The translations under genes and the position numbers were made by a program. A DNA stretch of 64,000 nt from contig CAWHSH010000001.1 in the NCBI GenBank assembly GCA_963831935.1, positions 672,378 through 736,377 of the forward strand. Reading direction: 5' to 3'. Below are positions 1-27,509 of the stretch, piece by piece. The notes beneath the pieces were generated by a model. That model saw only the letters and a list, made by a program, of their open reading frames with translations, was not told the origin of the DNA and searched no databases. The first letter of the stretch is position 1. Each line of letters starts with the position of its first letter. Source of the stretch: an uncultured Bacteroidales bacterium. GTDB lineage: Bacteria; Bacteroidota; Bacteroidia; Bacteroidales; VadinHA17.

Positions 1-32
1 TTTTCATCTTCAACGATCAGGATCTTTTTCAT
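1..32 (-). CDS. OmpR-family response regulator RR1, 5' end only (runs off window)
   Basis: Reverse complement of 1-32 reads ATG AAA AAG ATC CTG ATC GTT GAA GAT GAA = MKKILIVEDE, the same start as RR2/RR4/RR5, in the same position downstream of a kinase. Confidence 0.85.
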   Translation of the reverse strand, partial: MKKILIVEDE

Positions 33-60
33 TATTTTAATATGTACCGCTATTTAAAAA

Positions 61-172
61 AGTCTTCAGTCTTCAGTCCGAAGTCTTCAATTTGCCGACT
101 GTCCCGAAAAAGCTTGCGCTTTTTCGAGGACCTCGAATCGCAAGATTCGGGACCGACTGCGGACTGGAGACT
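61..172. repeat. HK-RR junction palindromic element, copy A (53-bp core 101-153)
   Basis: (AGTCNNN)n...(NNNGACT)n heptamer arms around GTCCCGA-AAAAGCTTGCGCTTTTT-CGAGGACCTCG-AATCGCAAGATT-CGGGAC; five copies in window. Confidence 0.9.
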
Positions 173-2283
173 AATTTCCATCCAGCGGAATCCTGACCAT
201 AAACCTGCTCCCTTTGCCCACTTCGCTTTCTACTTCAATTGTCTCCGCCATGTGCTTCAACAATATGCTTTGCCAGTGTTAACCCTAATCCGGTGCCCCG
301 GGTTTCCCTGGTCTTTGCAGTTGACACCCGGTAGAATTTATCAAAGATCTTTTTCAGCTCTTCTTTCGGTATCCCCACACCATGATCTGTAACCGAAATC
401 AAAGCTGAAGTTGAATCCTTGCAAACTTTTACCAGAATATATTTTCTCTCTTCTGAATACTTCACAGCATTGTTTAACAAATTCAATAGCACCTGTGAGA
501 TTGCATCCTTATCAATTTTAAGGGTTATTGATTCATCAGGCAGCTCACTTTCAATTTTAAAACCGTCATCACGTATGTGGAATTTATACGCTTCCAATGT
601 ACTCCTGACCACTTCAACAAGATCAGCTTCCTTGAAGTTGTATTCTTTGACGCCGGTATCCATCCTGGAAAAATCAAGCACATTGTTGATGAGGTGTGTC
701 AGGCGTTCACTTTCCTTCCTGATGATGCCGTAAAATTCCTGTCGCTTTTTCTCATCGTCAACTATTCCCGATTCAAGTGTTTCGCCAAAAAGCCTTATTA
801 GTGCAAGCGGAGTTTTGAGCTCGTGCGAGACATTTGAGACAAACTCCGATTTCATGCGTGAGATCTCTGCTTCGTGAATTACAGCACGCACCATAACGAC
901 AATCCCAATAAGCATTATGATAATTATTCCTGCAAAAAGCATCAGGTAGAGTAGTTTCTCTTTACCTACCAGCTGTTCTATCGATTTCCCTTCATTATCA
1001 AACAAGGCTACCTTCCAGTTGACAAATATTTTAGAAAAATTATCAGCTACAAGGTAATTTGATACTGGATTGTTATGCCGGATATATAACAAACTGTCTT
1101 TGTCACCGAGAATACCAACGAATACATCTTTTCCAAGTTCCACCGAAGTCAGAATTTCGGGAAACAGGGTCGACAGGATGTAGTCTTTGTTAAACTGATA
1201 ACCCAATGCGAATAATTCAGACTTTTGAAATGCTGAAGGAAGCTTAAAGAAACCGATTTGAAGTGTGGAATCATTTTCATTCCGGGAAATGTTAAACGAT
1301 TGTAATTCAGAAGGTGCTTCGTGGCTTAGCTCATACTCTATTTCGGGTAAAATATTCTGATTAATGAGCTCAATAAATCTTATTTGTTCAAGCAGCCTGT
1401 TTTCCACTATTTTCAAATTCTCAATATTCCTATCAGCAGAGTCATTATTGATATCCGAAAATTCATGTTTTCGTGTCTCTGCACTGGCAAACTTCAGATA
1501 GTAGAGATATTCTCCTCCAAGAAGATCCCAGGGATGGTTCAGCAGTTGCTGATAGAGTTCAAGTACAGCATTATATTCTTCTTTTTCAGCATGCAGGGAT
1601 TTATAACCATCGGTAATTTGAGAGAGAGCAATTATGGTGGCCGGAATTTCCCCTATGGTTACATCTTCCTTTTTCAATTCCAGAATTTTTTTGTACTCGT
1701 TGATTCCAGTTTTATATTGTCCTGTTTTAAAATAGCAGCGTCCAATCCGTGATAACAGTAAGGCAAGTTCCTCTGAAGATTTTATCTGGATCAAAGTCTT
1801 TTGATAATATCTTATGGCATCCACATAATCTTTCCTTATAAATTCAGCTTGCTCTGCCATAACAAAATTGGTGGCTGCCTGTGGATTTATTAAAGGACGG
1901 AGTTCCTGAATTTTATTCCATCCAAGTGAAACGGAAGAAGAGATCAGCCCTCCATCAGTATTTACCAGAAACAGATGTTTGAAAGCTGGATTTTCTGATT
2001 CTATATTCCTGAGCCATACTTTCAGATCAGCATCATTGTCAGATTTAGAAAATAATTCAGTGACACTGTTCCGCAGGTTTGCTTCATTCCTGAAAACTTC
2101 GCTCTCCAGTTTATCGCGCAGTAAACCAACTGTGCCTTTGTACTTTGCTCTGAGATTGTCTGCTTTTTGATTGATTGACTGTAAACTCAGATAGCTGAGG
2201 ATAGCACATGGTACCATAATTAGAATAAAAACAAAAAAAAGAATCTTCGTCTTTGGGTTGATATGTTTAAGAGGGCCGGTCAT
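171..2283 (-). CDS. Sensor histidine kinase HK1 (TM, periplasmic TPR-like domain, TM, HisKA, HATPase_c); 1-nt frameshift near 243
   Basis: H-box SHELKTPL, N-box LLNNAVKY, G1 DHGVGI, G2 GTGLGL; removing one base near 243 restores [26 protein letters not shown] ending at TAG 171-173. Confidence 0.9.
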
Positions 2284-2316
2284 ATTATAATATTACATCA
2301 ATATTACGACCCGGGG

Positions 2317-2354
2317 AGTAAAAAACAATAAAGAAATTGTAAAACTATGTAAAA
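2317..2354 (-). promoter_or_regulatory. Putative OmpR-type direct-repeat boxes upstream of HK1 (TGTAAAA on + strand)
   Basis: TGTAAAA at 2338 and 2348, AGTAAAA at 2317; resembles the module-4 boxes. Confidence 0.45.
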
Positions 2355-2418
2355 TTAAACTGAGTAATGTTGCTGCGAATTATTACCAGATACCTGTTCA
2401 GACAAATTCTGTTAAAAT

Positions 2419-2506: not shown

Positions 2507-4509
2507 TTATTTCGGCAGGAAGTTCTCCATTACCCATACCTCCTGGTTTACCATGACAGCATCAATCGCTACCCGGTGACCGTCAGGATGCATCCGCAGT
2601 TCTCCAGTCAACTGACCAGTAATGTTCAATCCCAGAGATTGTGCTTCTCCGCCTTCAGCTGGGATACGCCATAATTGCCATTGTCTTTCCTTGCCTTTGA
2701 CACCTTTAAAATAGACGATATAGCGGCCATCTGGTGACCATGCAGCTGAACCCCAGAAGGGAATCTCTTTCTCTTTATCGATTCTCACCAATTCTCTGGC
2801 CTCACCCCCTGCAACCGGCATGATGAACAGAACCTGAGATTTATATCCCTCTGTGCCGGTGGCTATGAGCAATCGCTTCCCATCAGGCGACACCAAGCCT
2901 GCATAGAGCCCTTGTTTCTCGCTGACTACTGTCTCTTTGCCAGACCTCAAATCGTGGGCTACAAGGCCAGGCGATCTGACGTAGAAGATTGTATTACCGT
3001 CCGGTGAAAGTTCGAATCGCGTCCTAGACCGTAAGCGGCATCAGAGAAGTCACCTGCCCTGTTTGGACATCAATTCGTATCAGTTCCCTGCCTTTCCCGG
3101 CCTCCGATGCCGTAACCACAATGGCTTTCCCGTCCGGTGTCCAGCGGATACCACTCCATTCGATTTTCCTCTCACCAATACGAATCTCCCGCTCCTCATC
3201 TGTATCCATGGAACGGATTATCACAGCCTGATTTGATTCGTTGTTTAAAACGCCAGCGAGTAAGCTTCCATCGGGAGACCAGTCTGGAGTTCGAATGTTG
3301 CCTCTTTTGAATGCAGTTAGCGGCCGCGAAATTATGTTTCCACCGGTCGGATTATATTCCGCTATTTGAACACCCCAAACGTTGTTGTTGACCGCATAGT
3401 AGAAATCGCCCGAGTGCGTTAAACCCATCGGTAAGAAGCCCCAGTCCTTCTTGATGAACACTGGTTCGCCCTTTGCCTTTCCTCCGTCCACCGCGATCAG
3501 CCACGCATCGGACGATCCAGACCGCTCGCTTGAGAACATGACGTACTTTCCGTCTGGGAGTCCATCCAAGGACACTATGGTTCGATTGGTCCGGAATGAG
3601 CAGTGATTCAATTCCGGTCTGAAGCTCAAACAACGAAATACCTTCTCTGGTTGACCAGGCAATGTACCGTCCGTCGGGTGAGAAATCCCCATCCGATGGT
3701 AATCCTTTTCCTTTCTCCTTCAGCAGCTTTGCCGAACCGTCAGCAACGGTAAGCAGCATCATATCGCTATTTCCATCGGTTTTTACGAATTCCGCAAGCA
3801 GGTGCCTGCTGTCAGGCGACCATGCCACAGGAATGTGGTTAAGCACTCCATTTCCAGTAGTATTCAGAACCCGTGGCTTTGAGCCATCGATCCCTACAAC
3901 ATAAAGGTCGAACGAGCCATTAATTGTCACAGGTGTAGGCGATACTCTTGCTGTCGGGCGAAGGAACAGAGGGTTCAATGTACCTATACGGGTCGTGATT
4001 ATCGGTTATCAGCCGGTTCTGACCGGTAGTGAGATCGCGGATAGCTACATCGCCTGTCTCCCAGTTGGTGAAAGATAAGAAACGGCCATCGGGCGACACC
4101 TTGCCGGTTACATCAGCACCTGACCAGACTCTTTTTACAGCCAGCGTTGAACTGCCCGATCCACCGGTTGATGTTGTCAGCGATGCCAGCTTTGCTTTTG
4201 CCAGGGCTACCATCTCGGTTTGATCGGGATACGTGTTGACCAGGCGCGTGAAATATTCACTGGCTTTTTGTTTGCCCATTTTTTCATTGACCAGTCCCAG
4301 ATGGTACAGGGTTTTAGCGGCCACCGGGCGGTCATCGGGATATTTTTTCAGAATATCCAGGTAGAGCTCAACAGCTTTATCGAGGTTCCCTGTTACTTCT
4401 TCCTCATAAATTGCTGTCGTGAGCAATGACAGATGCCTTTTTGTCCTGGGCGGAAAGAGAATCCGGTCAGGAGTACAAAGGCAATAATTATAAACAGATG
4501 TGTTTTCAT
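2507..4509 (-). CDS. Secreted TPR + TolB-like/PD40 beta-propeller protein (propeller 2), split by several frameshifts
   Basis: ATG 4509 MKTHLFIIIAFVLL signal peptide; TPR AIYEEEVTGNLDKAVELY..YP; repeated WSPDG/SPDGR motifs across ORFs 3920-4540, 3352-3978, 3024-3692, 2507-2950; ends VWVMENFLPK*. Confidence 0.85.
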
Positions 4510-4567
4510 GATACGGATTATTTTTTGATAAAGGTACCACCTGTGTGCGTTAAGCGTATGAACATCC

Positions 4568-4597
4568 GGATAAGTTTGGTTAAGATCAGGTTAAGAT
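4568..4597 (-). promoter_or_regulatory. Direct-repeat boxes upstream of propeller 2 (GGTTAAGAT x2)
   Basis: GGTTAAGAT at 4578 and 4589 (11-bp period), degenerate GGATAAGTT at 4568; overlaps the RR2 stop codon. Confidence 0.6.
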
Positions 4598-5286
4598 TCA
4601 TGCGGATTGAATTTATATCCCGCACCACGTATACCGGTAATCCAGTGCGATTGTTCCATACCATCCTCAATTTTCCTCCGCAGGTTGGCAATATGGGTAT
4701 CCACGGTTCTGGGGGTGACATAAACCTTGTCACCCCAGATGCTGTGAAGAATATCATCACGTTTGATTACATGTCCGGCATGCTGCATCAGCATCTTCAT
4801 CAGTGCAAATTCAATTGTTGTAAGCTGAACCGGCTCATTGTTTTTCGTAACAGTGTATTTTGAAGGATCCAGTTCAAACGGACCAATCTGTATTGTTACT
4901 GTTGCAGTTTGGTGATTCCTTATCTCCGACCGGCGCAGAAGTGCTTTGACACGGGCATGGAGCTCGAATGGACTGAATGGCTTGGTTATATAATCGTCTG
5001 CTCCGAGCTCAAGTCCGAGCACCTTGTCGAATTCCTGGCTCCTGGCAGTCAGCATGATGATTGGTGTTCCGATATTGCGCCGCCGTAATTCCTTGCAGAT
5101 CTCCAGACCGTTCAGTTCCGGCAGCATCAGGTCGAGAATGATGATATCAAGGTTCAGATCCATCGCTTTTTCGAGCCCTTCCGGACCAGTGGCTGCAGTT
5201 TCGACCTGATAACCTTCAAATTTAAAATCATCCTCGAGGGCCATCCGGATGGTCCGGGCATCTTCGATTATTAGTATTTTTTTCAT
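4591..5286 (-). CDS. OmpR-family response regulator RR2
   Basis: Receiver (IIEDA, DLMLP, LTA, TKPF) plus winged helix (RTVDTHIANLRRKIE, IRGAGYKF). Confidence 0.95.
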   Translation of the reverse strand: MKKILIIEDARTIRMALEDDFKFEGYQVETAATGPEGLEKAMDLNLDIIILDLMLPELNGLEICKELRRRNIGTPIIMLTARSQEFDKVLGLELGADDYITKPFSPFELHARVKALLRRSEIRNHQTATVTIQIGPFELDPSKYTVTKNNEPVQLTTIEFALMKMLMQHAGHVIKRDDILHSIWGDKVYVTPRTVDTHIANLRRKIEDGMEQSHWITGIRGAGYKFNPHES

Positions 5287-5331
5287 GAGTGCTTGTTTGT
5301 ATCGTTGTTTTTATTTGTCTATTTGTATGTT

Positions 5332-5450
5332 AGTCCTGAGTCGGTCCCGAATCTTCGATTCGAGGATCCTCGAAAAAGCGAAAGCTTTTTCGGGACAGTC
5401 TTCAGTCGACAGTTGGCAATTTGCAGACTGTGGACTGTGGACTGGAGACT
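5332..5450. repeat. HK-RR junction element copy B (core 5344-5396), inverted relative to copy A
   Basis: GTCCCGAATCTTCGATTCGAGGATCCTCGAAAAAGCGAAAGCTTTTTCGGGAC with GACTGTG heptamer arm abutting the HK2 stop. Confidence 0.9.
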
Positions 5451-7471
5451 TAACACAACGGTATCCTGACAATAAACATGCTCCCTTTTCCCGGTTCACT
5501 TTCTACCCCGACTTCTCCACCATGGGCTTCAACTATTTTTTTCACGATTGTAAGACCGATCCCGCTTCCCCTGATTCCCAACCTCTGCGGTTCATCTCCG
5601 CGATAGAACCGGTCGAATATTTTTTCCTGATCTTTACCTGAAATGCCAATACCGTAATCCTTCACACAAAACAGTAATTCATCATCTTCTTGAGAAAGGA
5701 TAATGTCAATTTGCCTGGATGTCCCGGAAAATTTTATTGCATTGTCAACCAGATTATAGAAAACCTGAAGAATAGCATTCTTGTCAGCCTTGATGACAGG
5801 CACCTGATCAGGACGATCATACCTGATGTCAAAACCGGGTTCCGGAAGCCTTTCCCGGGTTGATTCGAGAAACTTCATGAGGAGTTCATCCAGATCCAGT
5901 TCAGTAAAATCGTATTTCTTGCGATCATCGTCCATTCTCGAAAAATCAAGAATATTATCTATCAGATGACTGAGGTGTTTGCTTTCCTCCAGCATTGCTG
6001 AGTAATATGCCGATTTGCGCTCTTCCGTCTGAACCCGGTTGTGATGCAGCATTTCAGTCATCATTCGGATGGAAGTAAGCGGACTTTTCAGTTCATGCGA
6101 TACATTGGAAATGAATTCCGATTTAAGTTTATTCAGCCTGAGTTCCACGTTAAGGGAATACATTATAAAAACAAGACCGAGTACCATGAGGAGTGCAATC
6201 AGAATAAAAATAAAAAGATATATACCGCTTCCTGCTTTCAATAATGTCGCAATGAATCCGGGTTTATTTTCACTTAAAAGTAATTTCCACTGGGGAAGAT
6301 ATTCCGGAAATGGGAATGAAAGATAACTCGTTTCTTCTTTCAGGACTTTTGAAAAAATAAGCTTCCCGTTCTCATCTTCAACTTTTACATTTATCGAAGA
6401 GCCCGGATCGAGTTCTTTGATCAGCTTTTCTGATATTGATTTCAGATAGATCGGGAAATCAATCACCATGGCTGTTTGAACATCATTGTTTTTAATCCTT
6501 GATAAATACACTGCTGCAAGCTCAGCTGAATTGATCGGAATACAGGATAACTCATTTTTGTCACTGTTAAAATGATTATTACTCCCGGCTGCGATCAGAT
6601 CCGGTCCACTGAGTATCCTGATCAGATAATCAGTGCGGGTTCTTTGAGTATCCAGTTCCCCAACCAGGGAATCAGTCACTCGATCTGTTTCCCGGATAAT
6701 ATCTTTGAAAGATTGGTAAAACATGTCAAACTGATTTTTGTCGTATTCACCCGGAGGGTGAAGCAAGAGCTCCAGATACTGGCGGGAATTGTTCATCATT
6801 TCATCCTTTTCTCCAAGCGATTTATTGATCTTCAGAATTTCCAGACTGGCTAGCAATCCAAGCGGTATTTGTCCGTTTAAAAAGCTTCCACGGTAATTAT
6901 TTCTAATCTCATCATAGAGAGCTTTAGCCCGTACAGGCTGGTTCATTTTGTTATACAACCGGGCGGAAGAAACCAGTGCCTGGATTTTTTCTGCCGGATT
7001 ATTAGTTTTGAGGACAATATTCTGGTAAAATCTGAGCGCATCTGAAAACCTTCGCTCAATATACTCCAGCCGGAGACCTTCTTTCAGGCTGGCGGGTTGT
7101 TTAAACTGCTCAGTTTGGTTGGTCAGTAAGTCTGCAGGTAGATACAAGAGCTGATGGGTTATGAGCTTTTGTAAACCGCCGGAATCTTTGACAATAAGTG
7201 CAAGCAAAGCCGGATCATACTGTCTGGCGCCATAAAGCATTGAATCAGTGGTCTGTTCATTCATGAATTTTACAAAACCTGAATCAATTGCAGTAAAAAA
7301 ATCCTGGCTGTACATTTCAAGCTTCCTGCGGTTTTCCTTTTCGCGCAGAGCCTGATCGTTACGTATGCCCCGGTAAGCCATGTATCCCAGGAGAATACCA
7401 GGCAGCACAACAGCAAGTGCATAATACAGGATTATCTTTTGCCTTCGTGATCCGGGATTAGCTGTTTTCAT
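5450..7471 (-). CDS. Sensor histidine kinase HK2 with periplasmic TPR-like domain
   Basis: Intact ORF; likely start ATG 7471 (MKTANP); H-box SHELKSPL, NLVDNAIKF, DYGIGI, GSGIGL. Confidence 0.92.
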   Translation of the reverse strand: MKTANPGSRRQKIILYYALAVVLPGILLGYMAYRGIRNDQALREKENRRKLEMYSQDFFTAIDSGFVKFMNEQTTDSMLYGARQYDPALLALIVKDSGGLQKLITHQLLYLPADLLTNQTEQFKQPASLKEGLRLEYIERRFSDALRFYQNIVLKTNNPAEKIQALVSSARLYNKMNQPVRAKALYDEIRNNYRGSFLNGQIPLGLLASLEILKINKSLGEKDEMMNNSRQYLELLLHPPGEYDKNQFDMFYQSFKDIIRETDRVTDSLVGELDTQRTRTDYLIRILSGPDLIAAGSNNHFNSDKNELSCIPINSAELAAVYLSRIKNNDVQTAMVIDFPIYLKSISEKLIKELDPGSSINVKVEDENGKLIFSKVLKEETSYLSFPFPEYLPQWKLLLSENKPGFIATLLKAGSGIYLFIFILIALLMVLGLVFIMYSLNVELRLNKLKSEFISNVSHELKSPLTSIRMMTEMLHHNRVQTEERKSAYYSAMLEESKHLSHLIDNILDFSRMDDDRKKYDFTELDLDELLMKFLESTRERLPEPGFDIRYDRPDQVPVIKADKNAILQVFYNLVDNAIKFSGTSRQIDIILSQEDDELLFCVKDYGIGISGKDQEKIFDRFYRGDEPQRLGIRGSGIGLTIVKKIVEAHGGEVGVESEPGKGSMFIVRIPLC

Positions 7472-7642: not shown

Positions 7643-7870
7643 TTCAATTGCCGTCGGTTTTAACCGACGGTTCGAGTCACAACCTCAATCTTCAGGATTT
7701 TAGTCCTTCATTTATTGGGCTAAAGCCCGGAATGTGGGAGGGTTCCAGATCCGTTGGCTGAAGCCAACAGTAATTGATTTATCATATCGATAGGTTGCTT
7801 ATTCCAATTTCTGTCGGAAATCCAATGGTAATAGATTCTTCAAATCGGTTGGTTTTCTGACAATTCGGTA
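7643..7870. repeat. 228-bp direct repeat 1 made of REP hairpins
   Basis: AATTG-CCGTCGGTTTTAACCGACGG, GGATTTTAGTCC, GGGCTAAAGCCC, CCGTTGGCTGAAGCCAACAG-TAATT; colinear copy at 8548-8775. Confidence 0.9.
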
Positions 7871-7958
7871 CGGCCGGACGCTAACAGTAATTGCTTCAAA
7901 AAGACTATGCAACTACAAATATTGTGAGAAATCTATTGTCCCTTCCTATATTACTGTT

Positions 7959-8020
7959 AATTACCGTCGGTTTTAACCGACGGAAGATGCAAATCCACAT
8001 CTATTTGGGACTTTAGTCCC
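7959..8020. repeat. REP hairpin plus GGGACTTTAGTCCC palindrome overlapping the transposase stop
   Basis: AATTACCGTCGGTTTTAACCGACGG 7959-7983; GGGACTTTAGTCCC 8007-8020. Confidence 0.8.
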
Positions 8021-8447
8021 TCATTCTTTCCAATTTGTATTCCTTAATTAGGTTATTTAATTCATCCTGAAAAGATACTTTCTGGTGATGCTGATCCTGA
8101 TTCCGTATATATTGTCTTAAATTTTCTATTTGTATCATCCCGATAGATACTGCATAATAATCATCCTGCCATTCAAGCTTTAATCTGGTTAATTTGTTTT
8201 TATTAATCCAGTAAGAACTCTCTCCTTTTATTTTTTGCATTATATCAGAAATATTTTGGTTGCCACCCAAGGATATAAGAGCATGCAGATGTTCATGATA
8301 ACCGTTAATGTGATCAATATAAATACCTTTTAATTTTGCATTTTCACGAATGTGTGAGATTACTGTATCTCTTATCTGATCCCTCAAATAAGGAATTCTG
8401 TCTTTTGTGGTCCACACACAGTGGACCCAAATTCTTATATATGACAT
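8013..8447 (-). mobile_element. tnpA: IS200/IS605-family Y1 (HUH) transposase, REP-associated (RAYT-like)
   Basis: N-terminal HCVWTTKDR, HUH motif EHLHAL, KGESS, WQDDYY, catalytic YIRNQ..HH; likely ATG 8447; flanked by REP hairpins; no tnpB. Confidence 0.88.
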
Positions 8448-8547
8448 ATTATTGGAAATAACAGCGTTTGACAAATATAAAGATAGGTAATTTAAACTTT
8501 ACTTGAAAGTTCTGTCGATAAAAATTGGATTCTTCTCAACCGACAAA

Positions 8548-8775
8548 TTCAATTGCCGTCGGTTTTAACCGACGGTTCGGGTCACAACCTCAATCTTCAG
8601 GACTTTAGTCCTTCACTTATTGGGCTAAAGCCCGGAATTTGTGGAGGGTGCCAGATCCGTTGGCTGAAGCCAACGGTAATTGATTTTTCATATCGATTGA
8701 CTGTTTGTCTGGCTTCTGACGAAAAGCCAAAGGTAATAGATTCTCCTAATCGAATGGTTTTCTGCCAATTCGGTA
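8548..8775. repeat. 228-bp direct repeat 2 of REP hairpins
   Basis: Same length and order of hairpins as 7643-7870. Confidence 0.9.
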
Positions 8776-8841: not shown

Positions 8842-8946
8842 TTATTTCGGCAGGAAGTTTTCGAAAAGCCAGTACTCAAAACTGCTTTTAAGGCGCTTCC
8901 CAAAGACTATACTTTTGCCGTCGGGAGACCATCGTGGAAAACTTTC
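8842..8946 (-). pseudogene. 3' stub of a PD40 propeller gene (about 34 codons)
   Basis: Reverse complement reads ESFPRWSPDGKSIVFGKRLKSSFEYWLFENFLPK*, i.e. a WSPDGK blade plus the family C-terminal ENFLPK motif, with no 5' part. Confidence 0.8.
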
Positions 8947-8950
8947 AATC

Positions 8951-8970
8951 GTGTTAAGATTTGGTCAAGT
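8951..8970 (-). promoter_or_regulatory. Operator-like 20-mer at the RR3 stop
   Basis: GTGTTAAGATTTGGTCAAGT, identical to 14177-14196. Confidence 0.65.
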
Positions 8971-9654
8971 CTGATCAGTCTTAAATTTATATCCGATACT
9001 TCGTACACCGATTATAAATTTTGGATTTTCCGGATCGTCTTCAATTTTCTTTCTCAGATTCGCAATATGCGTGTCTATTGTGCGGGGGTAAACATAAACG
9101 CTGTCGCCCCATACATTATCAAGTATTGAATCACGACTGACCACCTGGTCTTTATGTTTAATGAGAAAATGAAGCAGAGTAAACTCGAGGGCCGTAAGGT
9201 TAATCGGCTTTCCATTCTTTTTCGCTTCGTACTTTCTGAAATCAATTTCCACGTCACCGAAATGATCAAGGCCGATTCCCTGTTGATTTTGCTTCATCCT
9301 TCTGATAATGGCATTCACACGGGCAATAAGCTCACGGGGACTGAAGGGTTTTGTAACGTAATCATCAGCTCCTATCTCCAGCCCGAGGACTTTATCGACT
9401 TCCTGACTTTTAGCTGTTAAAATAAGAATGGGAGTCGTAATTCCGGTTTGACGTAGTTGCTTACAGACTTCAAATCCATTCATCTTTGGCAGCATAATAT
9501 CAAGAATGATAAGGTCAAAGGATTGATCCCTGGCCATGGAAAATCCTTTTTGTCCGTCTGTTGCACTTGAAACCTGATATCCCTCAATTCTGAGGTTATC
9601 TTCCAGTCCCATCAGGATCCTCTCCTCATCTTCAATGATTAGTATTCTTTCCAT
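8965..9654 (-). CDS. OmpR-family response regulator RR3
   Basis: Receiver plus winged helix (RTIDTHIANLRKKIE, VRSIGYKF). Confidence 0.95.
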   Translation of the reverse strand: MERILIIEDEERILMGLEDNLRIEGYQVSSATDGQKGFSMARDQSFDLIILDIMLPKMNGFEVCKQLRQTGITTPILILTAKSQEVDKVLGLEIGADDYVTKPFSPRELIARVNAIIRRMKQNQQGIGLDHFGDVEIDFRKYEAKKNGKPINLTALEFTLLHFLIKHKDQVVSRDSILDNVWGDSVYVYPRTIDTHIANLRKKIEDDPENPKFIIGVRSIGYKFKTDQT

Positions 9655-9683
9655 TAGTAAAGGTTTGTGCAGTTATTGATTTT

Positions 9684-9827
9684 CAGTCTCCAGTCTACAG
9701 TCTTCAGTCGGCAGTCGGTCCCGAATCTTCGATTCGAGGATCCTCGAAAAAGCGCAAACTTTTTCGGGACAGTCTCCAGTCTTTGGTCGGCCGTCAATTG
9801 CAGACTGAGGACTGCAGACTGCGGACT
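9684..9827. repeat. HK-RR junction element copy C (core 9718-9770), same orientation as B
   Basis: CAGTC heptamer arm, 53-bp core, GACTG arm ending at the HK3 stop. Confidence 0.9.
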
Positions 9828-14196: not shown

Positions 14197-14213
14197 TCGA
14201 TATCTAATATAGT

Positions 14214-14430: not shown

Positions 14431-14433
14431 TAT

Positions 14434-14466: not shown

Positions 14467-14493
14467 CCTGAAAATGTTTTTATTCTGAATTTT

Positions 14494-18348: not shown

Positions 18349-18376
18349 TTGTTAGTGAAATTTAATTCACTAACAA
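18349..18376. promoter_or_regulatory. Perfect 11-bp inverted repeat immediately upstream of the propeller-4 RBS
   Basis: TTGTTAGTGAA-ATTTAA-TTCACTAACAA. Confidence 0.55.
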
Positions 18377-18393
18377 TGTTGCCACTTTTATAT

Positions 18394-18440
18394 TGTCAAC
18401 GTTGTCAAAAAAAAGTAACCAATTGTAAAAGATTGTCGTT
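18394..18440 (-). promoter_or_regulatory. Direct-repeat boxes upstream of propeller 4 (TGTCAA/TGTAAA)
   Basis: TGTCAAC 18394, TGTCAAA 18403, AGTAACC 18414, TGTAAAA 18424, TGTCGTT 18434. Confidence 0.6.
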
Positions 18441-19125
18441 ACCCTGATAAACCGGTAACCTCCTCCATAAACTGAAAGGATATACCGGGGATGAGACGGA
18501 TCTTCCTCAATTTTTTTCCTCAGTTTAAGAATATGATTGTCAATGGTCCGGGTAGTGGGATAACTTTCATATCCCCAGATTTTGTCAAGCAGATCATTTC
18601 TTGATACAACTTCTCCCCTGTGGACGACGAAATATTTTAAAATATCCGTTTCAAGAGAAGTGAGTTCCTGTTCTTTCCCTTTCCGTCTGATTTTAAATCG
18701 GGCAAAATCAATTTCAATATCACCAAAGGAATATATTTCAGGAACTGGTTTCACCCTCTCTTTCAGCATGTCTTAGCCTTGCTTTTATCCGGGCTAAAAG
18801 TTCCCTGATGCTGAAGGGCTTTGGTCATATAATCGTCAGCTCCGATTTCAAGTCCCACCACCTTGTCAATTTCTCCTCCTTTGGCTGTGAGCATGATAAT
18901 CGGTATATTTATATTTTTTTGCCGTAGATTCCGGCAGACCTCAAGACCATCCATCTCAGGCAGCATAATATCAAGAATTATGAGGTCCGGTGCTTCTTCG
19001 ACAGCTTTGCGAAGACCTTCCGTTCCATTAACAGCCCAGTCAACATCGAATCCTTCGTCAGACAGGTTGAGTTTTAATCCTTTAACCAGGTCTGGTTCAT
19101 CTTCTATTATCAGAATCTTCTTCAT
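18439..19125 (-). CDS. OmpR-family response regulator RR4, frameshifted
   Basis: Receiver in 18763-19125, winged helix (RTIDNHILKLRKKIE) in 18362-18769; removing one base gives the normal GYRFIG* end at 18439-18441. Confidence 0.85.
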
Positions 19126-19156
19126 TTGACTGTTTATTTTATTTAATATTATTATC

Positions 19157-19274
19157 CTCAGTCCTCAGTCCTCAGTCTTCAGTCGTCAAGCGACTGTCCC
19201 GAAAAAGCTTGAGCTTTTTCGAGGATACTCGAATCGAAGATTCGGGACCGACTGGAGACTGTGGACTGCAGACT
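19157..19274. repeat. HK-RR junction element copy D (core 19196-19248)
   Basis: (CAGTCCT)3 arm, 53-bp core, GACTG arm ending at the HK4 stop. Confidence 0.9.
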
Positions 19275-21403
19275 TTATGTACTATCCAACGGGAGCCTGA
19301 CAATGAACCTGCTGCCTTTACCGACTTCGCTTTCAACCTCTATTGTACCTCCATGAGCTTCAATAATATGTTTAACCAGGGTAAGACCTAATCCGCTTCC
19401 CCTGGCTTCGGAGGCAATTTTATTCTCCGACTGATAAAATCTCTGGAAGATTTTTGGGATCTCTTTTTGTGAAATGCCAATACCTTTATCTGCGACCTGA
19501 AGAACAGCATTCCCGTTATCCCTGAATAATTTAACGGTCACTTCCTTTTCCTTCGGAGAAAATTTCATGGCATTGCTCAATAAATTAATAAGAACGCTGG
19601 CAATTGCTTCTCCGTCAAAATTCATTTCCGGAAGGTCACGGGCAATATCGCTATGGATGACAAATCCTTTTTTCTCCAGATGATAACGATATGATTCCAG
19701 AGTATCCAGGATAACATCCTGTAAATATCCTTTTTTAAAGTCAAATTCCTTTCTGCCCATTTCAATCCTTGAAAAATCAAGAACGTTGTTGATCAGATGT
19801 GACAGACGTTCACTTTCCTTCGTGATTATTTCATAGCATTCTTTCTTCTCTTTGTTTGTGAGATTTTCTTTACGCTGGAGTGTCTCCCCATAAAGACGAA
19901 TAAGTGTCAGCGGGGTCTTTAGTTCGTGGGAAATATTATTGACAAATTCTGTTTTTAAGCGGGTGGTTTCAGATTCGCGGGAAATGTCACGTGCAATCAG
20001 AACAGCGCCCAAAAGCATTAAAGCCACAATAATAGTCAGAAGGATTCCGTAGAAAAAAATCTCACGGTGTGCAGTCTTCTCAAGTGCTTTTATTTCAGGG
20101 TGAGAAACAAGAAGTTTCCATGGAAGAGGAAACATCACGAAAATTTAAAACCAGAGATTCCTCTGATGTTAATACATCTTTTCCTGATATTATATTTTGA
20201 TCTTTTTCATCAACGATTTTAAAATCCAGTCCGGAATCTTTTGTAATTTCTTCAAGAATTTTTGGTATTATTTGGTTTCTTAAAAGATTGAGATCCCAGC
20301 AGAAGCCTCCATAAAATGTTTGTCCCGATTGAAAATCAGGCAAGATCGTATAAGAAACCAGAAGAAAGATTATTTTCAAAGTCATCAAGAAATCGTTCCG
20401 GCAACATCTTGTCTTTTGCCTGGTACAGTGATAATTTTTCCTTTATTTCCGGAATAGCATTTCTCTTTAATAAATCTATAAAAAGCAGGGTTTGTCTGTA
20501 GGGAGACTGTTGTTTTTGTATATCAGTAAAAGATTTTTGAATTTCAGGAAATTTTCCTTCAATGAGTTTACTGTTTAGAATTGATTCAATTTCTGATACA
20601 TAGAAATCATAAACAGGCTGGTTAATAGGCCAGGTCCCGTTCCGTAATTTTTTCGTAAAGATTAAGTAAGATTTCAAGGGAATTTTCTTCCTCCTTCTTT
20701 TCCCGGGCAATTTCGTATAATTGAAACATAGCCATAATACCATATGGGTGCCCTGCTTTGTTTTGGAATTGTCCGTAGTTTTCGGACAAGTTCATGTATA
20801 TACTTTCTCAGCTTCATCATATTTCTCGGATGATAAAAGGCAGCGTCCCAAACCTTCAAAAGCAAGCGCACGGTATTGTTCTGAATGAGTGTATGAAATA
20901 CACTTCTTATATAATTCAGCAGCCCGTGTATAACTCTTTTTGAGAGAATTCAAAAAATTCGGCTCGTCGGAAGAATTGTGTAAACCTGTCTGTTTTGTAT
21001 TTCCTTTTCCCATTGAATCCCAAATGCATTTTCACTTCCTGTTTCAGGGATAACTATTTTAAATTCAGCATCAAGTAAAAAAAGTTGTCCTGCGAAATCT
21101 TCTGAATATATAGGGTAGTCCGAGGTCAGACTGGTCATCCTTTTTTGATTGCACCAGACTTATAAAATTTTCTGAACTTAGAACTTTTTGTTCCTGCTCA
21201 AGAAGTGCTCCTTCGACGGTTTTAAGGGCAGCTTCTCCTGAAATCCAGAGATTTGATTCAAGAAGTTTTTTAATAGCTTCGCGTCTTTTGGGGAAGGTAC
21301 TTAAACTTAAATATGCCGCAATCAATGAAGGAATAAAAATTGCGAGAAGGAAAATGACGATGATTTTCCTGTGGGTAAATATCCGGTGGGTAAATAGTTT
21401 CAT
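19275..21403 (-). CDS. Sensor histidine kinase HK4 with TPR-like periplasmic domain, multiply frameshifted
   Basis: ORF pieces 21071-21403 (TM), 20792-21013 (TPR, EGLGRCLL), 20336-20743, 20095-20388, 19275-20138 (SHELKTPL, NLLSNAMKF, GSGLGL). Confidence 0.83.
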
Positions 21404-21795: not shown

Positions 21796-24027
21796 ATGTT
21801 AGAAAGTCTGAAAATAGCAATCGGGAGGCAAAAAAAGCTGATATTGCTATTCCTGCTTACCATCTTCCTGCCTTCAGTAACACTTAGTATATTCGGGATT
21901 ATCGCCCTGCGGAACGAGAGGTTCAGACTTGAAAAACAATTTCGCGAAAAACAGTTGGATATCGTCAATACGGTTAAATCAAAGGTCAACGAGAAAATCA
22001 CTGAGCTGGAAGATGAACTTCACTACCTTGTTCAGATGCCTTCATTTATCAATAATGATTATCCGGAAATTATCACGCTGGTTGAAAATCAGCTTGAACA
22101 AAACCGGTTGTCAGGTCAATTCTTCGTGGTATATAACGGAACTGAACCATCCTTCCCTCCTTTTTGGGCGGAAGATAGATTATACTCACCTGATCCGGAT
22201 CAGAGATTTACAGGTGCTGAAAAGAAGAAATCAGATCAGGCAGAAAATTATGAATTTTTACAAAATAATTATCGGGAAGCAGTTACTCTTCTTGAAGATC
22301 TTCTGAAAATCACTGTTGACAAAAATCTTCGTGGCGAAATACTGAACCGCATAGCCCGTAATTATATGAAGCAGCATAATTTTGAGTCGGCGATTACTGC
22401 TTACAACAAAATAATCCGTGATTTTCCGGAAAGCAGGACTTTTTCCGGTACACTGTTGTCTGTCACAGTGCGGCTCCAACTGTCGGAATGCTACCTGAGA
22501 TCAGGAAACAAGGAAGAAGCTTTGAAAGAAACGTTATGGGCTTTTGAAGATGTGTTACGTAATTATCATAACCTTAGCGAAAATCAGTTCTCAGCATACA
22601 CTTCATTAGTGGGACAGAAATTCAGTGACATCCGGAACGAAAATCCTGAGATTATCTCCCGGGACACAAGCTATGTTAATGATTTTAAAAGCCTTGATAC
22701 TCTATATCGGAATAAAATCAGGGAATGGCAGGTAATCAATAATCTGAAGAATGAATGTATTGCAGACATTTCAAGGGAACTCATTAAGGGCAGTGAATAT
22801 ACAGATAAGACACTCCGGTATTCAAAGAAAATTGGACCTGAAGATTATCTAATATTATCATTACTGATCCCAGATCACTCCAAAATACGGTATAGAGGTA
22901 TCGCGGGTATCACGATCAACAAATCATTTCTGGAAGACAATTTATTGCCTGATATCATGGTAAAATCAGGACTGAAAAAAGAAGCAGATTTCGCTTTATC
23001 TGATCCCGGCGGACGTATAATAGCAGGAGATTCAGCCTTATATAATAAATCTACAAATCTTACCTCTTACTTTGATAGTAATTTCCCTCCCTGGAGAATT
23101 GAGGTAACCGGGGAAATAATCAGGCCATTGCTGTTAACGGGGTTTTATAAAAGTTTCTATTTCTGGACTATTCTAACCATGATGGTTGTCCTGGCTTTTG
23201 GAATCGTAATCATTAACAGGACTATTGCTCATGAAAAGGAAATATTGAAACTAAAATCGGACTTTGTTTCATCGGTATCGCATGAATTCAAAACGCCTAT
23301 TACCTCCATAAAAGCCCTTACAGAACGGCTGCTTGATGGCACAGTGAAAGATTCCAAACGGATGAGGGAATATTACTCGGTGATCTCACAGGACGCTGAA
23401 AATCTAAGTCATCTGGTTGGGAATTTCCTGGATTTTTCGAAGCTGGAAGAGGGCAGGAAACAATACAATATTGAAGAAACAGATTTCGAAAACTGGCTCG
23501 AACAAACAATTACAGATTTTTTCAGCATGATTCCCCGCAGAAAATGTAAAATCGATAGAAATATCATTGAACCTTTGTCTCCCATGAAAATCGATAAAAA
23601 CTCCATGAAGCTGGCAGTCAATAACCTGCTGGATAATGCCGTCAAGTTCTCATCAGAAAATTCAGAAATAAAGCTGATCCTTGAAAAGGAGGATAAACAA
23701 CTTCTGCTGAAAATTCAAGATGAAGGCATTGGAATACCTAAGAATGAACAGATCCGGATTTTTGAAAAATTCTACCGTGGAAAAGAGGCTTCACATTTTT
23801 CAACCACAGGTACAGGACTGGGCCTTACCATCGTAAAGCAGATTGTCGAAGCTCATGGTGGAACAATAGAGGTTGAAAGCGAAATTGGCAAAGGCAGCAG
23901 ATTCGTTGTCAGACTCCCGTTGTGTGAAGTCTCCAGTCCACAGTCCACAGTCGGTCCCGAATCTTCGATTCGAGGATCCTCGAAAAAGCTCAAGCTTTTT
24001 CGGGACAGTCGCTTGACGACGGAGTGA
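21796..24027 (+). CDS. Sensor histidine kinase HK5 with TPR-like periplasmic domain; reads through junction element E
   Basis: TM, TPR ([16 protein letters not shown]), [23 protein letters not shown]; likely ATG 21796; 33-aa tail encoded by the repeat. Confidence 0.92.
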
Positions 24028-24045
24028 AGACTGCTGACTGAAGAC
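23928..24045. repeat. HK-RR junction element copy E (core 23954-24006)
   Basis: 72/73 nt identical (manual alignment) to copy D in inverted orientation. Confidence 0.9.
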
Positions 24046-24064: not shown

Positions 24065-24763
24065 ATGAAACATCAAATGAAAAAGATCCTGATCGTTGAA
24101 GATAATCCCGGCATTCAAATGAGCCTTATGGATGAATTTGAAGCCGAAGGATTTAAGATTTTCACTACCGGAAATGGAAACGATGGACTAAAGATGGTAA
24201 AAGATCATACTCCTGATCTCATCATCCTTGATATTATGCTGCCAGGATTGGATGGTTATGAGGTGTGCAAGAAATTAAGGATAGATGGGAATACCACTCC
24301 AATAATAATGTTGACTGTTAAAGATAAAGAAATCGATAAAGTTCTGGGGCTGGAACTCGGAGCCGATGATTACGTAACCAAGCCATTCAGTGTCCGCGAA
24401 TTATCAGCCAGGGTAAAAACAATCTTCCGCAGAATTGGTGAGTATTCTGGTGAATCAAACTCAATCAATATCGGCGAAACATCCCTGGATTTCAGGAAAT
24501 ATGAAGCAACAAGAAGAGGAGTTAAAATAGATTTTACTCCATTGGAATATCAAATACTGCAATTTTTTGTCAAAAACAGAGGTAAGGTAATTTCAAGGAC
24601 TGAATTATTGGAGAATGTCTGGGGAGGACAAAATACAATAGTCTCTTTACGAACAATCGACACCCATATTGCCAGTATAAGGAAGAAATTGGAGGATGAT
24701 GTTTCGAAACAGGAATTTATAATCAATATCAGGGGTGTGGGTTATAAACTTAAAGTTCAATGA
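24065..24763 (+). CDS. OmpR-family response regulator RR5
   Basis: Receiver plus winged helix (RTIDTHIASIRKKLE, IRGVGYKL); alternative start 24077. Confidence 0.95.
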   Translation: MKHQMKKILIVEDNPGIQMSLMDEFEAEGFKIFTTGNGNDGLKMVKDHTPDLIILDIMLPGLDGYEVCKKLRIDGNTTPIIMLTVKDKEIDKVLGLELGADDYVTKPFSVRELSARVKTIFRRIGEYSGESNSINIGETSLDFRKYEATRRGVKIDFTPLEYQILQFFVKNRGKVISRTELLENVWGGQNTIVSLRTIDTHIASIRKKLEDDVSKQEFIINIRGVGYKLKVQ

Positions 24764-24771
24764 CAGTTTTT

Positions 24772-24881
24772 GAAGATCCTCGTGCAAGCTACGAGGAATC
24801 TTCGATCCCAATTTGGTATTTTTTATTTTAATGCTCGCTAACCCCCCAGTAAGCAGCGGGGAATGCGCTCGCTGGGATTCA
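24772..24881. repeat. Solo REP/MITE-like hairpin element
   Basis: GAAGATCCTCGT-GCAAGCT-ACGAGGAATCTTC hairpin and degenerate CCCC..AAGCAGCGGGGAATGCGCTCGCT unit. Confidence 0.5.
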
Positions 24882-24913
24882 ATGAAATGGATTTAACGGA
24901 ACGATGTATAAAT

Positions 24914-24969
24914 TCCACACTTTCTCCACACTTCCTGAACACTCAGGCGTATAGTTCCGGGTAACTTTG
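24914..24969 (+). promoter_or_regulatory. Promoter of propeller 5: three 11-bp-phased boxes plus -7 box
   Basis: TCCACACTT 24914 and 24925, TGAACACTC 24936; TAACTTTG 24962-24969. Confidence 0.65.
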
Positions 24970-25021
24970 CATAAAAAGATCCATTGGCTGAAACAGGTTA
25001 ATGGGAAAAAGGGAGGTCATT

Positions 25022-27509
25022 ATGAAAAACTTTGAAAAAACTTCGTCCATTCTGCTTTTATCCGCTACATTTTTATTGTTTACAGCAGGAACATCATTTG
25101 CACAGAAGACTTCAGAACAGTTGTTTGAAAAAGCATTATACGCTGAAGAAATGAAAGGAGATCTTGGAGAAGCTGTAAAAATTTACCAGCAGGTTCTGAA
25201 AGAAAATCCAGGCAACCGGCAAGAATCTGCAAGAGCTTTGTTACACATTGGTATGTGCTATGAAAAACTGGGATCAGGGCAGGCAAGTCAGGCTTATCAG
25301 GATGTCATAGGTAAGTATTCGGACCAGGCAAAGGAAGTATCGATGGCAAAAGAACGGATCACCCGCCTTGAGGCCTTTACTGCTGAACTTTCCAGAGAGG
25401 CTGAAAAACACATGAAAAATGGGAATGAATTATTTAAAAGATGGGAATATGAGTCAGCTGTTAATGAGTATGAAAATGCAATTAAGCTTGGGCCAAATAA
25501 TCAGTTGGCGCTCAATGCAAGGTATTGCATTGGTCAATCGTGGTTCAGGGCAGGAAAATATGATGCAGCCCTGGCAACCTTTACCAAGCTGATCGAGGAT
25601 AATCCAAAAAGCAATATAGCACCGGTTACTGAACTTATGGTGGCACAGGTAAAACAGGCGATTGAGAAGAATAATAATACTTCAAGAATAAAGGATTATT
25701 CTGATGAAAATACTATTGTTGACCCCGAGACAGGAATCAAATACGCCAAAATCAGATCTTTCGTCGGGAAAAATGATCAAATAAGCTCATACATCAGGCG
25801 GTTTTAATATGTCCCCGGATGGCCGGTTTATGGTGTTGGAAAATAAAGTTGTCCCGGTTGATGGCAGTGATGCATTTGACCTTGTTGAAATGAATGCGTT
25901 ACGGGCTGTTTATGCTCCAGGTATGAAAAGAGCCGCATTTTATGCCGACAGCGCTATCTGGACTGTACCCGTTTCTCCTGAGACCGGGCATTCAATTGGG
26001 CAACCCCAAAAGCTGATTACCGGAACTTACAGATATCAAAGTTTCCGGTTAGCTGGTCACCCGATGGGGAAAAGACTGGCTTTGGGAAAGGGTTGATAAA
26101 ACAATAGCGGGAGATATCTGGACAATTAATGTTACAAACGGCGACCTGATGCCTATTACAACTTCTACTGATTTTGAGGGTAGTCCTGCCTGGTCACCTG
26201 ATGGTAAATTAATAGTTTATTTAATCCGGAAAAGAAAGGAATCTCTGACTGACCTCTGTTGAGGCAAAAAAACAAGGATGATTGTTAAAAGTGGCGGATA
26301 TCCAATCTGGTCGCCTGACAGCAAAATGGTTGTTCCATTCAAACCGGGAAGAACAACTATTTTTATTCATTTGATAGGACAAAAACCTTAGATTAACTAC
26401 CCGAAAGCAGGTAGGTATCTTTGTTTCTTTCTCACCCGATGGTAAGAAAGTTCTTTTTTACCGTTCTTCGAGTGATACGAAATGGCCGTTAAAAATAGTT
26501 TCAGTCCCAGGAGGTCCTCCATTTTCTCCATTTTAAATCTGTTGTTTACATGATTCTTAGTGGTTACTGACAGCAAACAAATGATGGCACAGAGTGAAAA
26601 TGAAAATGGAGATATGCTTTTTAAAATTCTCCGTAACAGGAGGACATCCGGGAGAAGTAAAAATAGAAGTTAATGTTAATGGTAAACCATTCCCATTCAT
26701 GTTTTCGGATGATCTGACAAAGGTTGCATTTTCGGTCAGGAGGGATGATGGAAGAAGGATTTATATACGTAGTCCCATTTTCGACGACTGAAGCCAGGAC
26801 CACTGGACCTGCGCGTCTGGTTTTTAAGGGATGGTCAGGAGGTGCCTATAATGTTTAATCTCCTGGTCTCATGATGGTAAAAAGATGGCTATTGTTCATG
26901 AGGGAGATATCTGGGTTGTTCACGCTGGAAGACGGGAAACCGGTAAAAATTACTAATACTCCTGAAAACGAGATATGGATTGAGCTTTTCACCCGACGGA
27001 AATATGATCTCGTATTTCATCCCTTCTGTTCAAACCGCGATTCTTTATATTATACCGGCCTCAGGGAGGTACTTCAAAAGTGCTAAATAACGATTGCAAG
27101 GGAGCCACCTGGTCAAAAGACAGCAAAAGCATTGTACTCTTGTCAAATAATGATCTAACGGTAATTTCATTAGACGGACAAAATACCAAGACACCTCCTC
27201 AACATTAAGGATATCGGACTAGCCAATGACGGAATTGAAGCCCGGTTCAGTCCGGATGGCAAATATCTTGCATTTATTGGTTATATTGGTGACAATGATC
27301 ACAGCCTCATTGTAACACTATTCAATGGAAACAGGAAAAGTTACCAGGTTAGCAGATGAAAACCTTAATGACTTTAAGTATGGACTGGTCTGGTCACCTG
27401 ATGGGAAATGGCTGTCTTATCTGAGTACGAGAATGTAAAGGTCCGTCCAGAGGGTTCTTTATGGGAAGCTGATTTTGATGAAATAAAGGAAAAACTGACT
27501 AAAGAATGA
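25022..27509 (+). CDS. Secreted double-TPR + PD40 propeller protein (propeller 5); 3' two-thirds heavily frameshifted (possible pseudogene)
   Basis: ATG 25022 behind GGAGG; signal SFA-QKTSEQLFEKALYAEEMKGDL; second TPR (ARYCIGQSWF); WSPDGK/FSPDGK motifs recur in changing frames to 27410; ends LWEADFDEIKEKLTKE* at 27509. Confidence 0.75.

Follow-up and report, generated by a model that had tools for sequence, protein, structure and literature searches.

Bacteria sense their surroundings mainly through two-component systems, and in most of these the signal and the mode of its perception are unexplained. In the ExoR-ExoS/ChvI system of the Rhizobiales the partner ExoR is an exported TPR/Sel1-repeat protein, and both ExoR and CpxP, the latter from the CpxP-CpxA/CpxR system of Enterobacteria, are partners under feedback control. 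In LuxP-LuxQ, TorT-TorS and ChvE-VirA, the kinase is informed at its periplasmic domain by a distinct ligand-binding protein. In Rhs and contact-dependent inhibition (CDI) toxin tips, variable C-terminal modules are replaced at a fixed joint and orphan modules lie behind them. Here an array of kinase, regulator and propeller genes is described from the sediment-type genome of an uncultured Bacteroidales bacterium (lineage VadinHA17; assembly GCA_963831935.1, contig CAWHSH010000001.1), based on a stretch of 64,000 nucleotides (nt; positions 672,378 to 736,377, hereafter the window) and on the part of the array to its left. The kinase-regulator-propeller triad is a conserved unit, recurring in other genomes far beyond chance. 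Judging from the sequences, each unit may be a two-component system with a two-part periplasmic co-receptor, composed of a kinase-matched TPR tag and a double propeller that would bind the ligand and can be exchanged, a proposal on which our confidence is evenly divided.

Operon-encoded periplasmic partners of kinases are established for CpxP-CpxA (PMC4160245), GltB-GtrS (PMC7927077), QseG-QseE (PMC6075780) and DbfQ-DbfS (PMC12714742). The likeness of the present locus to ExoR-ExoS/ChvI and CpxP-CpxA/CpxR lies in an exported protein that would influence its kinase from the periplasm, a role that is putative here. There is, however, no sequence relationship to ExoR or CpxP, and the partner here is a protein of 690-1290 residues with a double beta-propeller, encoded directly behind the regulator, with a kinase-matched tag and an exchangeable body, in tandem arrays across phyla; its binding and feedback are putative. 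LuxP, TorT, ChvE and GltB are Venus-flytrap binding proteins without an adaptor domain, whereas the putative binder here is a double propeller with a TPR tag; a separate ligand-binding protein reporting to the periplasmic domain of the kinase is also the point of likeness to GltB-GtrS (PMC7927077). The co-receptor logic would be analogous to that of CpxP-CpxA, ExoR-ExoS, LuxP-LuxQ and GltB-GtrS, while fold, modularity and the arrayed, mobile behavior differ.

Other resemblances concern single parts. The PD40 blades resemble TolB and the TPR resembles the C-terminal TPR of CpoB/YbgF, yet the TolB N-terminal domain is missing and there are no tol genes nearby. The tandem-propeller fold resembles the beta6/beta7 propellers of tricorn (best match 1k32), without the tricorn PDZ or catalytic domain. 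As to BlaR1/MecR1-BlaI, the body takes the place of the penicillin-binding sensor domain in Planctomycetota loci, whereas the bodies of the window are not fused to a transducer; they carry a TPR tag and accompany a histidine kinase. As in Rhs/CDI proteins, a constant N-terminal part is kept, the C-terminal module is swapped at one invariant joint and further modules follow in a stack, but there is no toxin/immunity pair and the exchanged module is a propeller in a signaling unit.

Organization of the array

Along the direction of transcription the units are ordered as kinase (HK), OmpR-type response regulator (RR) and exported TPR plus double beta-propeller protein (prop). Those of the window are listed below.

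171-2283, minus strand: HK1, kinase of unit 1 (HisKA 69.5 bits, HATPase_c 84.2 bits; hydrophobic segments at residues 10-39 and 438-475), with a frame break near base 241, at the C-terminus
from base 32 off the left end of the window, minus strand: regulator of HK1
2507-4540, minus strand: prop1, TPR plus double-propeller gene of unit 2, in four frame pieces (propeller-profile columns 30-200, 204-326, 322-503 and 518-685)
4591-5286, minus strand: RR1, OmpR-type regulator of unit 2 (Response_reg 104.9 bits, Trans_reg_C 84.8 bits)
5450-7471, minus strand: HK2, kinase of unit 2, intact (Pfam)
8965-9654, minus strand: RR2, regulator of unit 3 (389 bits on the regulator profile)
9828-11964, minus strand: HK3, kinase of unit 3, broken in the assembly at about 10780-10808 and about 11280
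12078-14089, minus strand: prop3, second TPR plus propeller gene behind unit 4, with two frame breaks
14494-18333, minus strand: 1279-residue protein of unit 4, intact, with signal peptide, TPR, body 1 and body 2 (PD40 154 bits; propeller-profile columns 1-685, then 119-685)
18362-19125, minus strand: RR4, regulator of unit 4, with frame breaks in the assembly
19275-21403, minus strand: HK4, kinase of unit 4, in several frame pieces
21796-24027, plus strand: HK5, kinase of unit 5, intact, divergent from HK4 (HisKA 62.3 bits, HATPase_c 108.7 bits, TPR_2 34 bits)
24065-24763, plus strand: RR5, regulator of unit 5 (374 bits on the regulator profile)
25001-27509, plus strand: prop5, TPR plus propeller gene of unit 5, with many frame changes (TPR matches in Pfam; tblastn pieces in frames 2, 3, 1 and 2)

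The five HisKA/HATPase_c kinases that the original prediction had located in the window were confirmed by the open reading frame (ORF) listing and Pfam, four of them on the minus strand and HK5 on the plus strand. The fivefold repetition of the whole triad claimed there held for the kinases, but the window contains four regulators and four propeller genes, one of the latter encoding the 1279-residue protein with two bodies, and the propeller of unit 3 is a stub. Likewise, the repeated units are real, yet the array is larger than the five modules that had been described, and the frame breaks had been missed: the window covers part of an array of about 64 kb, the remainder of which lies to its left, out to C1:635600. 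In total the array has eight kinases, as many regulators and no fewer than eight propeller genes. Since transcription runs from kinase to regulator to propeller, the regulator and the propeller gene of HK1 lie left of the window (C1:671732-672409 and C1:669552-671618, respectively), and both are intact; the latter, propD, encodes the intact 688-residue propeller protein of unit 1. Unit 4 carries two propeller genes, for the intact 1279-residue protein and prop3. The body of prop5 is of a different type and resembles the N-terminal half of a 1293-residue protein left of the window.

The motif SHE(L/F)K(T/S)P was found at the H-box of all five kinases, and the residue strings following it were exactly those quoted earlier from the translations. 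Scores of 62-70 bits for HisKA and 84-109 bits for HATPase_c (HK1, HK2 and HK5; Pfam) identify HisKA-type kinases, and the adjoining gene encodes a receiver and a winged-helix Trans_reg_C domain, as in classical two-component systems. All regulators of the array scored 367-389 bits on a profile built from them.

A 14-kb block of unrelated genes splits the array left of the window (C1:650463-664110), including an AAA-type ATPase, a TonB-dependent-receptor-like protein, a DUF4249-like protein and glycoside hydrolases. Within the window, the 36 kb beyond the array consist of tidy, intact genes.

Kinase sensor and propeller protein

Each kinase has two hydrophobic segments enclosing approximately 370-410 residues outside the cytoplasm, with TPR matches in that region, in agreement with the TPR-like extracytoplasmic domain of roughly 400 residues originally predicted. 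In the AlphaFold model of HK2 (predicted local distance difference test, pLDDT, 79.8), the first transmembrane segment extends as a long helix and is followed by two strands, a confident TPR-like helical array (residues 127-295), an alpha/beta domain (308-401) and the second transmembrane segment, which leads straight into the DHp helix without a HAMP domain. Orthologues of the HK2 sensor are 65-93% identical and form more than 100 clusters, and between kinase classes the sensor varies least in its TPR segment. A sequence search of the PDB with the kinase periplasmic domain gave no match, and in the fold search with the model of the entire kinase the matches came mainly from the catalytic core, which left the sensor fold unclassified.

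The partner protein had been described as carrying a signal peptide, a CpoB-like TPR and TolB-like blades without a peptidase domain, and this description stands (TPR_6/CpoB-like and PD40 matches, no catalytic domain). Export is predicted from one N-terminal hydrophobic segment, with the mature part beginning after ...AQ, as would be expected of a periplasmic partner; no lipobox cysteine was present in the N-termini of the propeller proteins. The model of propD (pLDDT 86.5) comprises the signal peptide, a five-helix TPR (27-116), a low-confidence linker (117-126) and two beta-propellers (129-688). A fold search of the PDB ranked the tricorn protease 1k32 first, ahead of eukaryotic double-propeller proteins and TolB. 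The propeller proteins end with the last blade (...ELWVLENFLPK) and no catalytic domain follows the propellers; peptidase-related matches were limited to models of propeller domains (Peptidase_S9_N, DPPIV_N and Tricorn_N/2nd).

Membership of described families was rejected in each case considered. The protein scored 98 bits against the TolB model TIGR02800 (cut-off 343), with a TPR in place of the TolB N-terminal alpha/beta domain, and 29 bits against the CpoB/YbgF model TIGR02795 (cut-off 90); a tricorn or S9 prolyl-oligopeptidase-type peptidase was discarded since the protein has no catalytic domain.

The TPR of the kinase sensor and that of its partner are related to each other. Residues 125-198 of HK2 are homologous to the propD TPR (27-103; hhalign probability 94.7%, E = 6e-8), and the profiles built from the array gave reciprocal cross-matches between the kinase TPR and the TPR of the propeller proteins.

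Conservation and distribution of the triad

The protein propD has at least 2,372 homologues, many of them 55-60% identical, in genome bins labelled as Bacteroidales, Acidobacteria, Aminicenantes, Phycisphaerae, Spirochaetes and Anaerolineales. In order to evaluate gene neighborhoods, 80 loci from species-representative genomes were scanned with profiles built from this array, and 22 were informative, in that a full-length TPR-propeller gene was preceded by 3.5 kb of sequence or more. A kinase with this type of sensor and an OmpR-type regulator lay directly upstream of the propeller gene, on the same strand, in 19-20 of these 22, which span Bacteroidota, Acidobacteriota and other phyla, so that the linkage of propeller homologues to this kinase class holds elsewhere. 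Nine shorter contigs agree with the order kinase, regulator, propeller as far as they extend. Tandem arrays were found in six loci (L001, L003, L015, L017, L024 and L044) and in genome G442, with five units. It is because the same triad recurs in other genomes that chance association is not a sufficient explanation.

The family was patchily distributed, and rare in Bacteroidota. It was present in three of 25 genomes of the window's genus and in none of 16 other families of the order; at the phylum level, three of 401 genomes were positive, the window's own included. In the phylum of an Acidobacteria genome with five tandem units, the family was detected in 27 of 301 genomes (about 9%). Given this patchiness, the array described here is an accessory island, probably acquired horizontally. 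The G+C content of the propeller genes was 0.45-0.49 (window 14001-18000 compared with the rest), that of the kinases 0.35-0.40 and that of the genome 0.415; the higher values of the propeller genes are consistent with bodies imported from donors of higher G+C.

The triad had not been recognized as a named system, and it still answers to no name: a search of the literature yielded no description of it, and in NCBIfam neither the sensor domain nor the propeller protein reached the cut-off of any model.

Matched tag and exchanged body

In order to evaluate whether each propeller protein has evolved together with its own kinase, Mantel correlations were calculated over 21 units from different genomes. 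The regulator followed the kinase sensor closely (r = 0.96), while the whole propeller protein was weakly correlated with the kinase (r = 0.29). The two parts of the propeller protein behaved differently: its TPR (columns 26-116) was correlated with the kinase sensor (r = 0.80) and with the regulator (r = 0.81), whereas the body was not (r = 0.16-0.18 with the kinase sensor), and the change occurred at columns 100-130 approximately, that is, at the linker. The original prediction that each propeller is cognate to its own kinase, for which co-divergence had been suggested as a check, is therefore borne out for the first 110 residues or so, the TPR, and fails for the rest of the protein. Insulated whole-propeller partners, as envisaged there, are contradicted by the swapping of the body between units, even between genomes of the same genus.

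The identity of the pairs points in the same direction. Kinases of the HK2 type in three genomes are always accompanied by a tag of the prop1 type (81-92% identity), on bodies from unrelated clades, and kinases of the HK1 type are paired with a tag of the propD type; three tag types of the window occur elsewhere on propD-like bodies. Conservation is higher in the tag (81-92%) than in the sensor of the kinase (71-87%).

The boundaries of the exchanged segment can be recognized at the DNA level. In the comparison of G000 with a same-genus genome, identity was approximately 0.9 over the kinase, the regulator and the 5' end of the propeller gene, for about 250-350 nt, and beyond that point it fell abruptly, to 0.62 in unit 1 and 0.41-0.50 in unit 2, recovering in unit 1 to 0.81 at the 3' end of the propeller gene. 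A conserved 36-nt stretch (repeat family D4) lies at the 3' ends of the propeller genes and encodes ...WVMENFLPK, the most conserved part of the propeller protein. Moreover, three propeller proteins contain two complete bodies in one frame (window 14494-18333, C1:646044-649925 and C1:638680-642725), the second starting at profile column 119-121, right after the ...MENFLP motif, an arrangement suggestive of reserve cassettes lined up after the first one. Taken from the drop at the linker, the conserved 3' end and the second bodies starting at the same joint, these sequence patterns indicate that the body is a discrete module with fixed joints.

The body in other transducers

In four loci of Planctomycetota (L038, L047, L055 and L062) the body is the extracytoplasmic C-terminal domain of a Peptidase_M56 (BlaR1-type) protein, whose gene lies directly after that of a BlaI-type repressor (in L038, 97 bits for M56 and 97.5 bits for BlaI, Penicillinase_R). 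The fused part is the body alone, from residue 112-121 approximately and with the same ...ELWVMENFLP end, at about 31% identity over residues 112-687. These proteins appear to be an uncharacterized sensor class of the BlaR1 family. In Bryobacterales, the body is preceded by a short cytoplasmic segment resembling a helix-turn-helix (HTH) and by one membrane helix; the HTH_17 score was 18.7 bits for a cut-off of 27, and such HTH-transmembrane-propeller fusions are tentative. In the window, a BlaR1/BlaI system was considered and rejected, with neither a Peptidase_M56 nor a Penicillinase_R gene present.

The TPR is thus missing exactly where the body is covalently joined to a transducer, and, since the fusions hold the body alone, from the same joint, it is present exactly where the body is not attached. 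This pattern fits a TPR that would serve as a non-covalent adaptor.

Proposed mechanism and its main alternative

In the proposed co-receptor system, a kinase exposing a TPR-like array and an alpha/beta domain outside the cytoplasm would signal to its own OmpR-type regulator. The third protein would join a tag of about 90 residues, matched to the kinase, through a flexible linker to a tricorn/TolB-like double beta-propeller, and this body would capture an extracytoplasmic ligand, probably a peptide, a protein segment or a glycan. The tag would dock the loaded or unloaded body onto its own kinase, thereby shifting the kinase/phosphatase balance, and the regulator would then alter transcription, probably including that of its own operon (autoregulation). 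The TPR-to-TPR docking put forward in the original prediction is supported indirectly, by the homologous TPR that kinase and tag share and by the co-divergence of the tag with the kinase. The shared strand and the short spacers between regulator and propeller gene suggest that kinase, regulator and propeller are co-transcribed.

Several observations weigh against this proposal. Two near-identical Solibacteraceae loci (L051 and L053), the exceptions among the informative loci, have TPR-propellers without a nearby kinase, and the propeller is missing in the first kinase-regulator pair of L001 and in unit 3 of the window. Taxonomic labels of metagenome-assembled genomes may be unreliable. No RNA runs holding an intact unit were found. 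The co-inheritance of the tag could reflect no more than the physical proximity of the genes, if recombination is concentrated at the linker, and a kinase with a large sensor domain of its own could sense alone. Finally, if the frame breaks considered below were real, the array would be non-functional in this genome.

In the main alternative, the propeller protein is a regulated product alone, an exported binding, scavenging or chaperone-like protein, while the kinase senses by itself and the tag, as the 5' end of the adjoining gene, is kept by linkage, with recombination at the linker. Such a reading would account for a body that behaves as exchangeable cargo without co-divergence with the kinase (r = 0.16-0.18), for the sensor domain of about 370 residues that the kinase already has, and for the short regulator-propeller spacers suggestive of one operon, and it has a precedent in a two-component system that controls a conserved periplasmic protein (PMC5636140). 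It is less easily reconciled with a body that occupies the sensor, not the output, position of BlaR1-type transducers, with a tag that is homologous to the TPR inside the kinase sensor and conserved above that sensor (81-92% vs. 71-87%), and with the absence of the TPR exactly in the covalent fusions. We consider it unlikely, if the most serious of the competing explanations.

Frame breaks and the state of the genes

Frame breaks interrupt HK1 (at its C-terminus), HK3, HK4, RR4, prop1, prop3, prop5 and, left of the window, a number of further genes. Three stretches of the window were compared with contigs from eight public metagenomes of sediment, soil and wetland, and at all 13 break sites covered by these contigs the assembly had extra bases with respect to its relatives, which include contigs 98-99% identical to the window. 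The extra bases were as follows.

3554/5 and 3924/5: one each, prop1
10780-10808: three, HK3
11279/82: one, HK3
13168/70 and 13619: one each, prop3 (relatives up to 99% identical)
18381, 18445/6, 18753 and 18819/20: one each, RR4
20787 and 20796: one each, HK4

The CT of the assembly at 3554/3555 corresponds in the relatives to a single C or a single T, which looks like a consensus built from mixed strains. Intact units are present in close relatives, namely in L001/L006 (a metagenome-assembled genome of Bacteroidales of the same genus) and in L086. Because the covered sites show solely extra bases with respect to near-identical relatives, most of the breaks are probably assembly errors; as one-base insertions exclusively, at polymorphic sites, they point to a mixed-strain consensus rather than to mutational decay. 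From these alignments we regard an assembly artefact, a consensus error in a strain-variable region, as a likely explanation. The coverage by long ORFs was dropped as a frameshift detector, as it does not discriminate when fragments stay long. In practical terms, annotation pipelines would call the broken array genes pseudogenes, and the warning is that such apparent pseudogenes are probably assembly artefacts.

Unit 3 differs from the other units in that its propeller gene is missing and its place is occupied by a transposase gene.

8842-8964, minus strand: propeller stub of unit 3, the last 30-40 codons approximately, ending FENFLPK (profile columns 659-685; repeat family D4)
8013-8474, within 7643-8775, minus strand: Y1/IS200-like transposase gene (Y1_Tnp 89.8 bits)

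The stub lies directly behind RR2. The transposase gene is flanked by direct repeats of about 230 nt (7643-7870 and 8548-8775), 85-96% identical (families D5, D7 and D8). The repeats are rich in short hairpins, and together with the transposase they may represent a REP/RAYT-like arrangement. Unlike the frame breaks, the stub and the insertion look real.

If the breaks, the stub and the transposase were all taken as genuine decay, the array in this genome would be a decaying pseudogene cluster without present function, a reading that concerns the state of the genes, not the mechanism, and is compatible with the other readings. At least 20 disruptions across HK1, HK3, HK4, RR4, prop1, prop3, prop5 and units left of the window, the loss of the unit 3 propeller next to a Y1 transposase, the split copies in a second genome of the genus (G023) and the tidy, intact genes in the rest of the window would all be expected from it. 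It would not, however, predict extra bases at 13 of 13 covered break sites, since true decay would mix mostly deletions with insertions, nor the CT at 3554/3555, which resembles a mixed-strain consensus; three one-base insertions within 30 nt (10780-10808) are unlikely in nature, and the relatives L001 and L086 have intact units. Decay of the array as a whole is judged improbable. In the second genome of the genus, propeller genes were observed as adjacent pieces at G023:C25:92602-104642.

A palindromic element between kinase and regulator

In seven of the eight units a palindromic element of approximately 110-140 nt lies between the kinase stop and the regulator start, and the genome has no other copy of its core. 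Two hairpins are enclosed by arms of 7-nt repeats (AGTCNNC.../...GACTGNN), and the predicted RNA folds are far more stable than those of shuffled sequence (z from -4.8 to -6.9).

60-180, minus strand: element after HK1 (fold -51.6 kcal/mol, z = -4.8)
5325-5445, minus strand: element after HK2 (z = -6.2; center inverted)
9680-9825, minus strand: element after HK3 (z = -6.8; center inverted)
19150-19275, minus strand: element after HK4 (z = -6.9)
23925-24045, plus strand: element after HK5 (z = -5.1)
C1:637779 and C1:668639: elements left of the window

The center of the HK2 and HK3 copies is inverted relative to that of the HK1, HK4 and HK5 copies. No Rfam family matched in bases 1-28000. The element was absent in the same-genus relative L001 and was found in a metagenome contig (L086) at the same position, between two intact genes. 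It may uncouple the expression of kinase and regulator, or be a small mobile element. The frames of HK5 (23922-24027) and of the leftmost kinase (C1:637720-637819) extend into the element by about 30 codons, and at this read-through a TAA codon in HK2 corresponds to GAA in HK5.

Biological significance

A conflict or defense device, in which the TolB-like propellers, induced on demand, would serve in the periplasm as decoys or receptors for invading proteins that exploit Tol-type propellers (bacteriocins, phage proteins) and an arms race would drive cassette exchange, arrays and horizontal spread, would suit the patchy distribution (3/25 genomes in the genus, 3/401 in the phylum), bodies 55-60% identical across phylum labels and their cassette-like replacement and stacking in double proteins, but the idea is speculative and we deem it highly improbable, given that no PADLOC defense family matches either propeller protein (kinase and regulator gave generic domain matches alone), that the kinase classes are well conserved (HK2 sensor 65-93%, more than 100 clusters) and that the neighbors include no toxin, nuclease or immunity-like genes.

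A wider form of the co-receptor proposal is possible, although we regard it as rather doubtful: the TPR-tagged double propeller might be a general plug-and-play receptor platform, in which the tag picks the transducer and the cassette picks the input, with cassettes also hard-wired to BlaR1-type and possibly HTH-transmembrane transducers. The tag would pair with the homologous TPR built into the kinase, the joints of the cassettes would be fixed at the linker and at the conserved ...WVMENFLP end, and cassettes would move between units, genomes and phyla. If this were true, sensory input would be rewired by recombination, leaving the insulated kinase-regulator pair untouched.

The family is widespread in bacteria of sediment, peat and soil, and in Acidobacteriota it reaches about 9% of the species sampled. 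What it offers is a testable architecture, in which kinase and regulator form an insulated pair, an adaptor tag is matched to them and the putatively ligand-binding body can be swapped. If docking proves true, the family would show sensory input evolving by cassette exchange, would explain large arrays of look-alike signaling genes in uncultured bacteria, and would provide a natural scaffold to engineer new inputs into existing signaling circuits.

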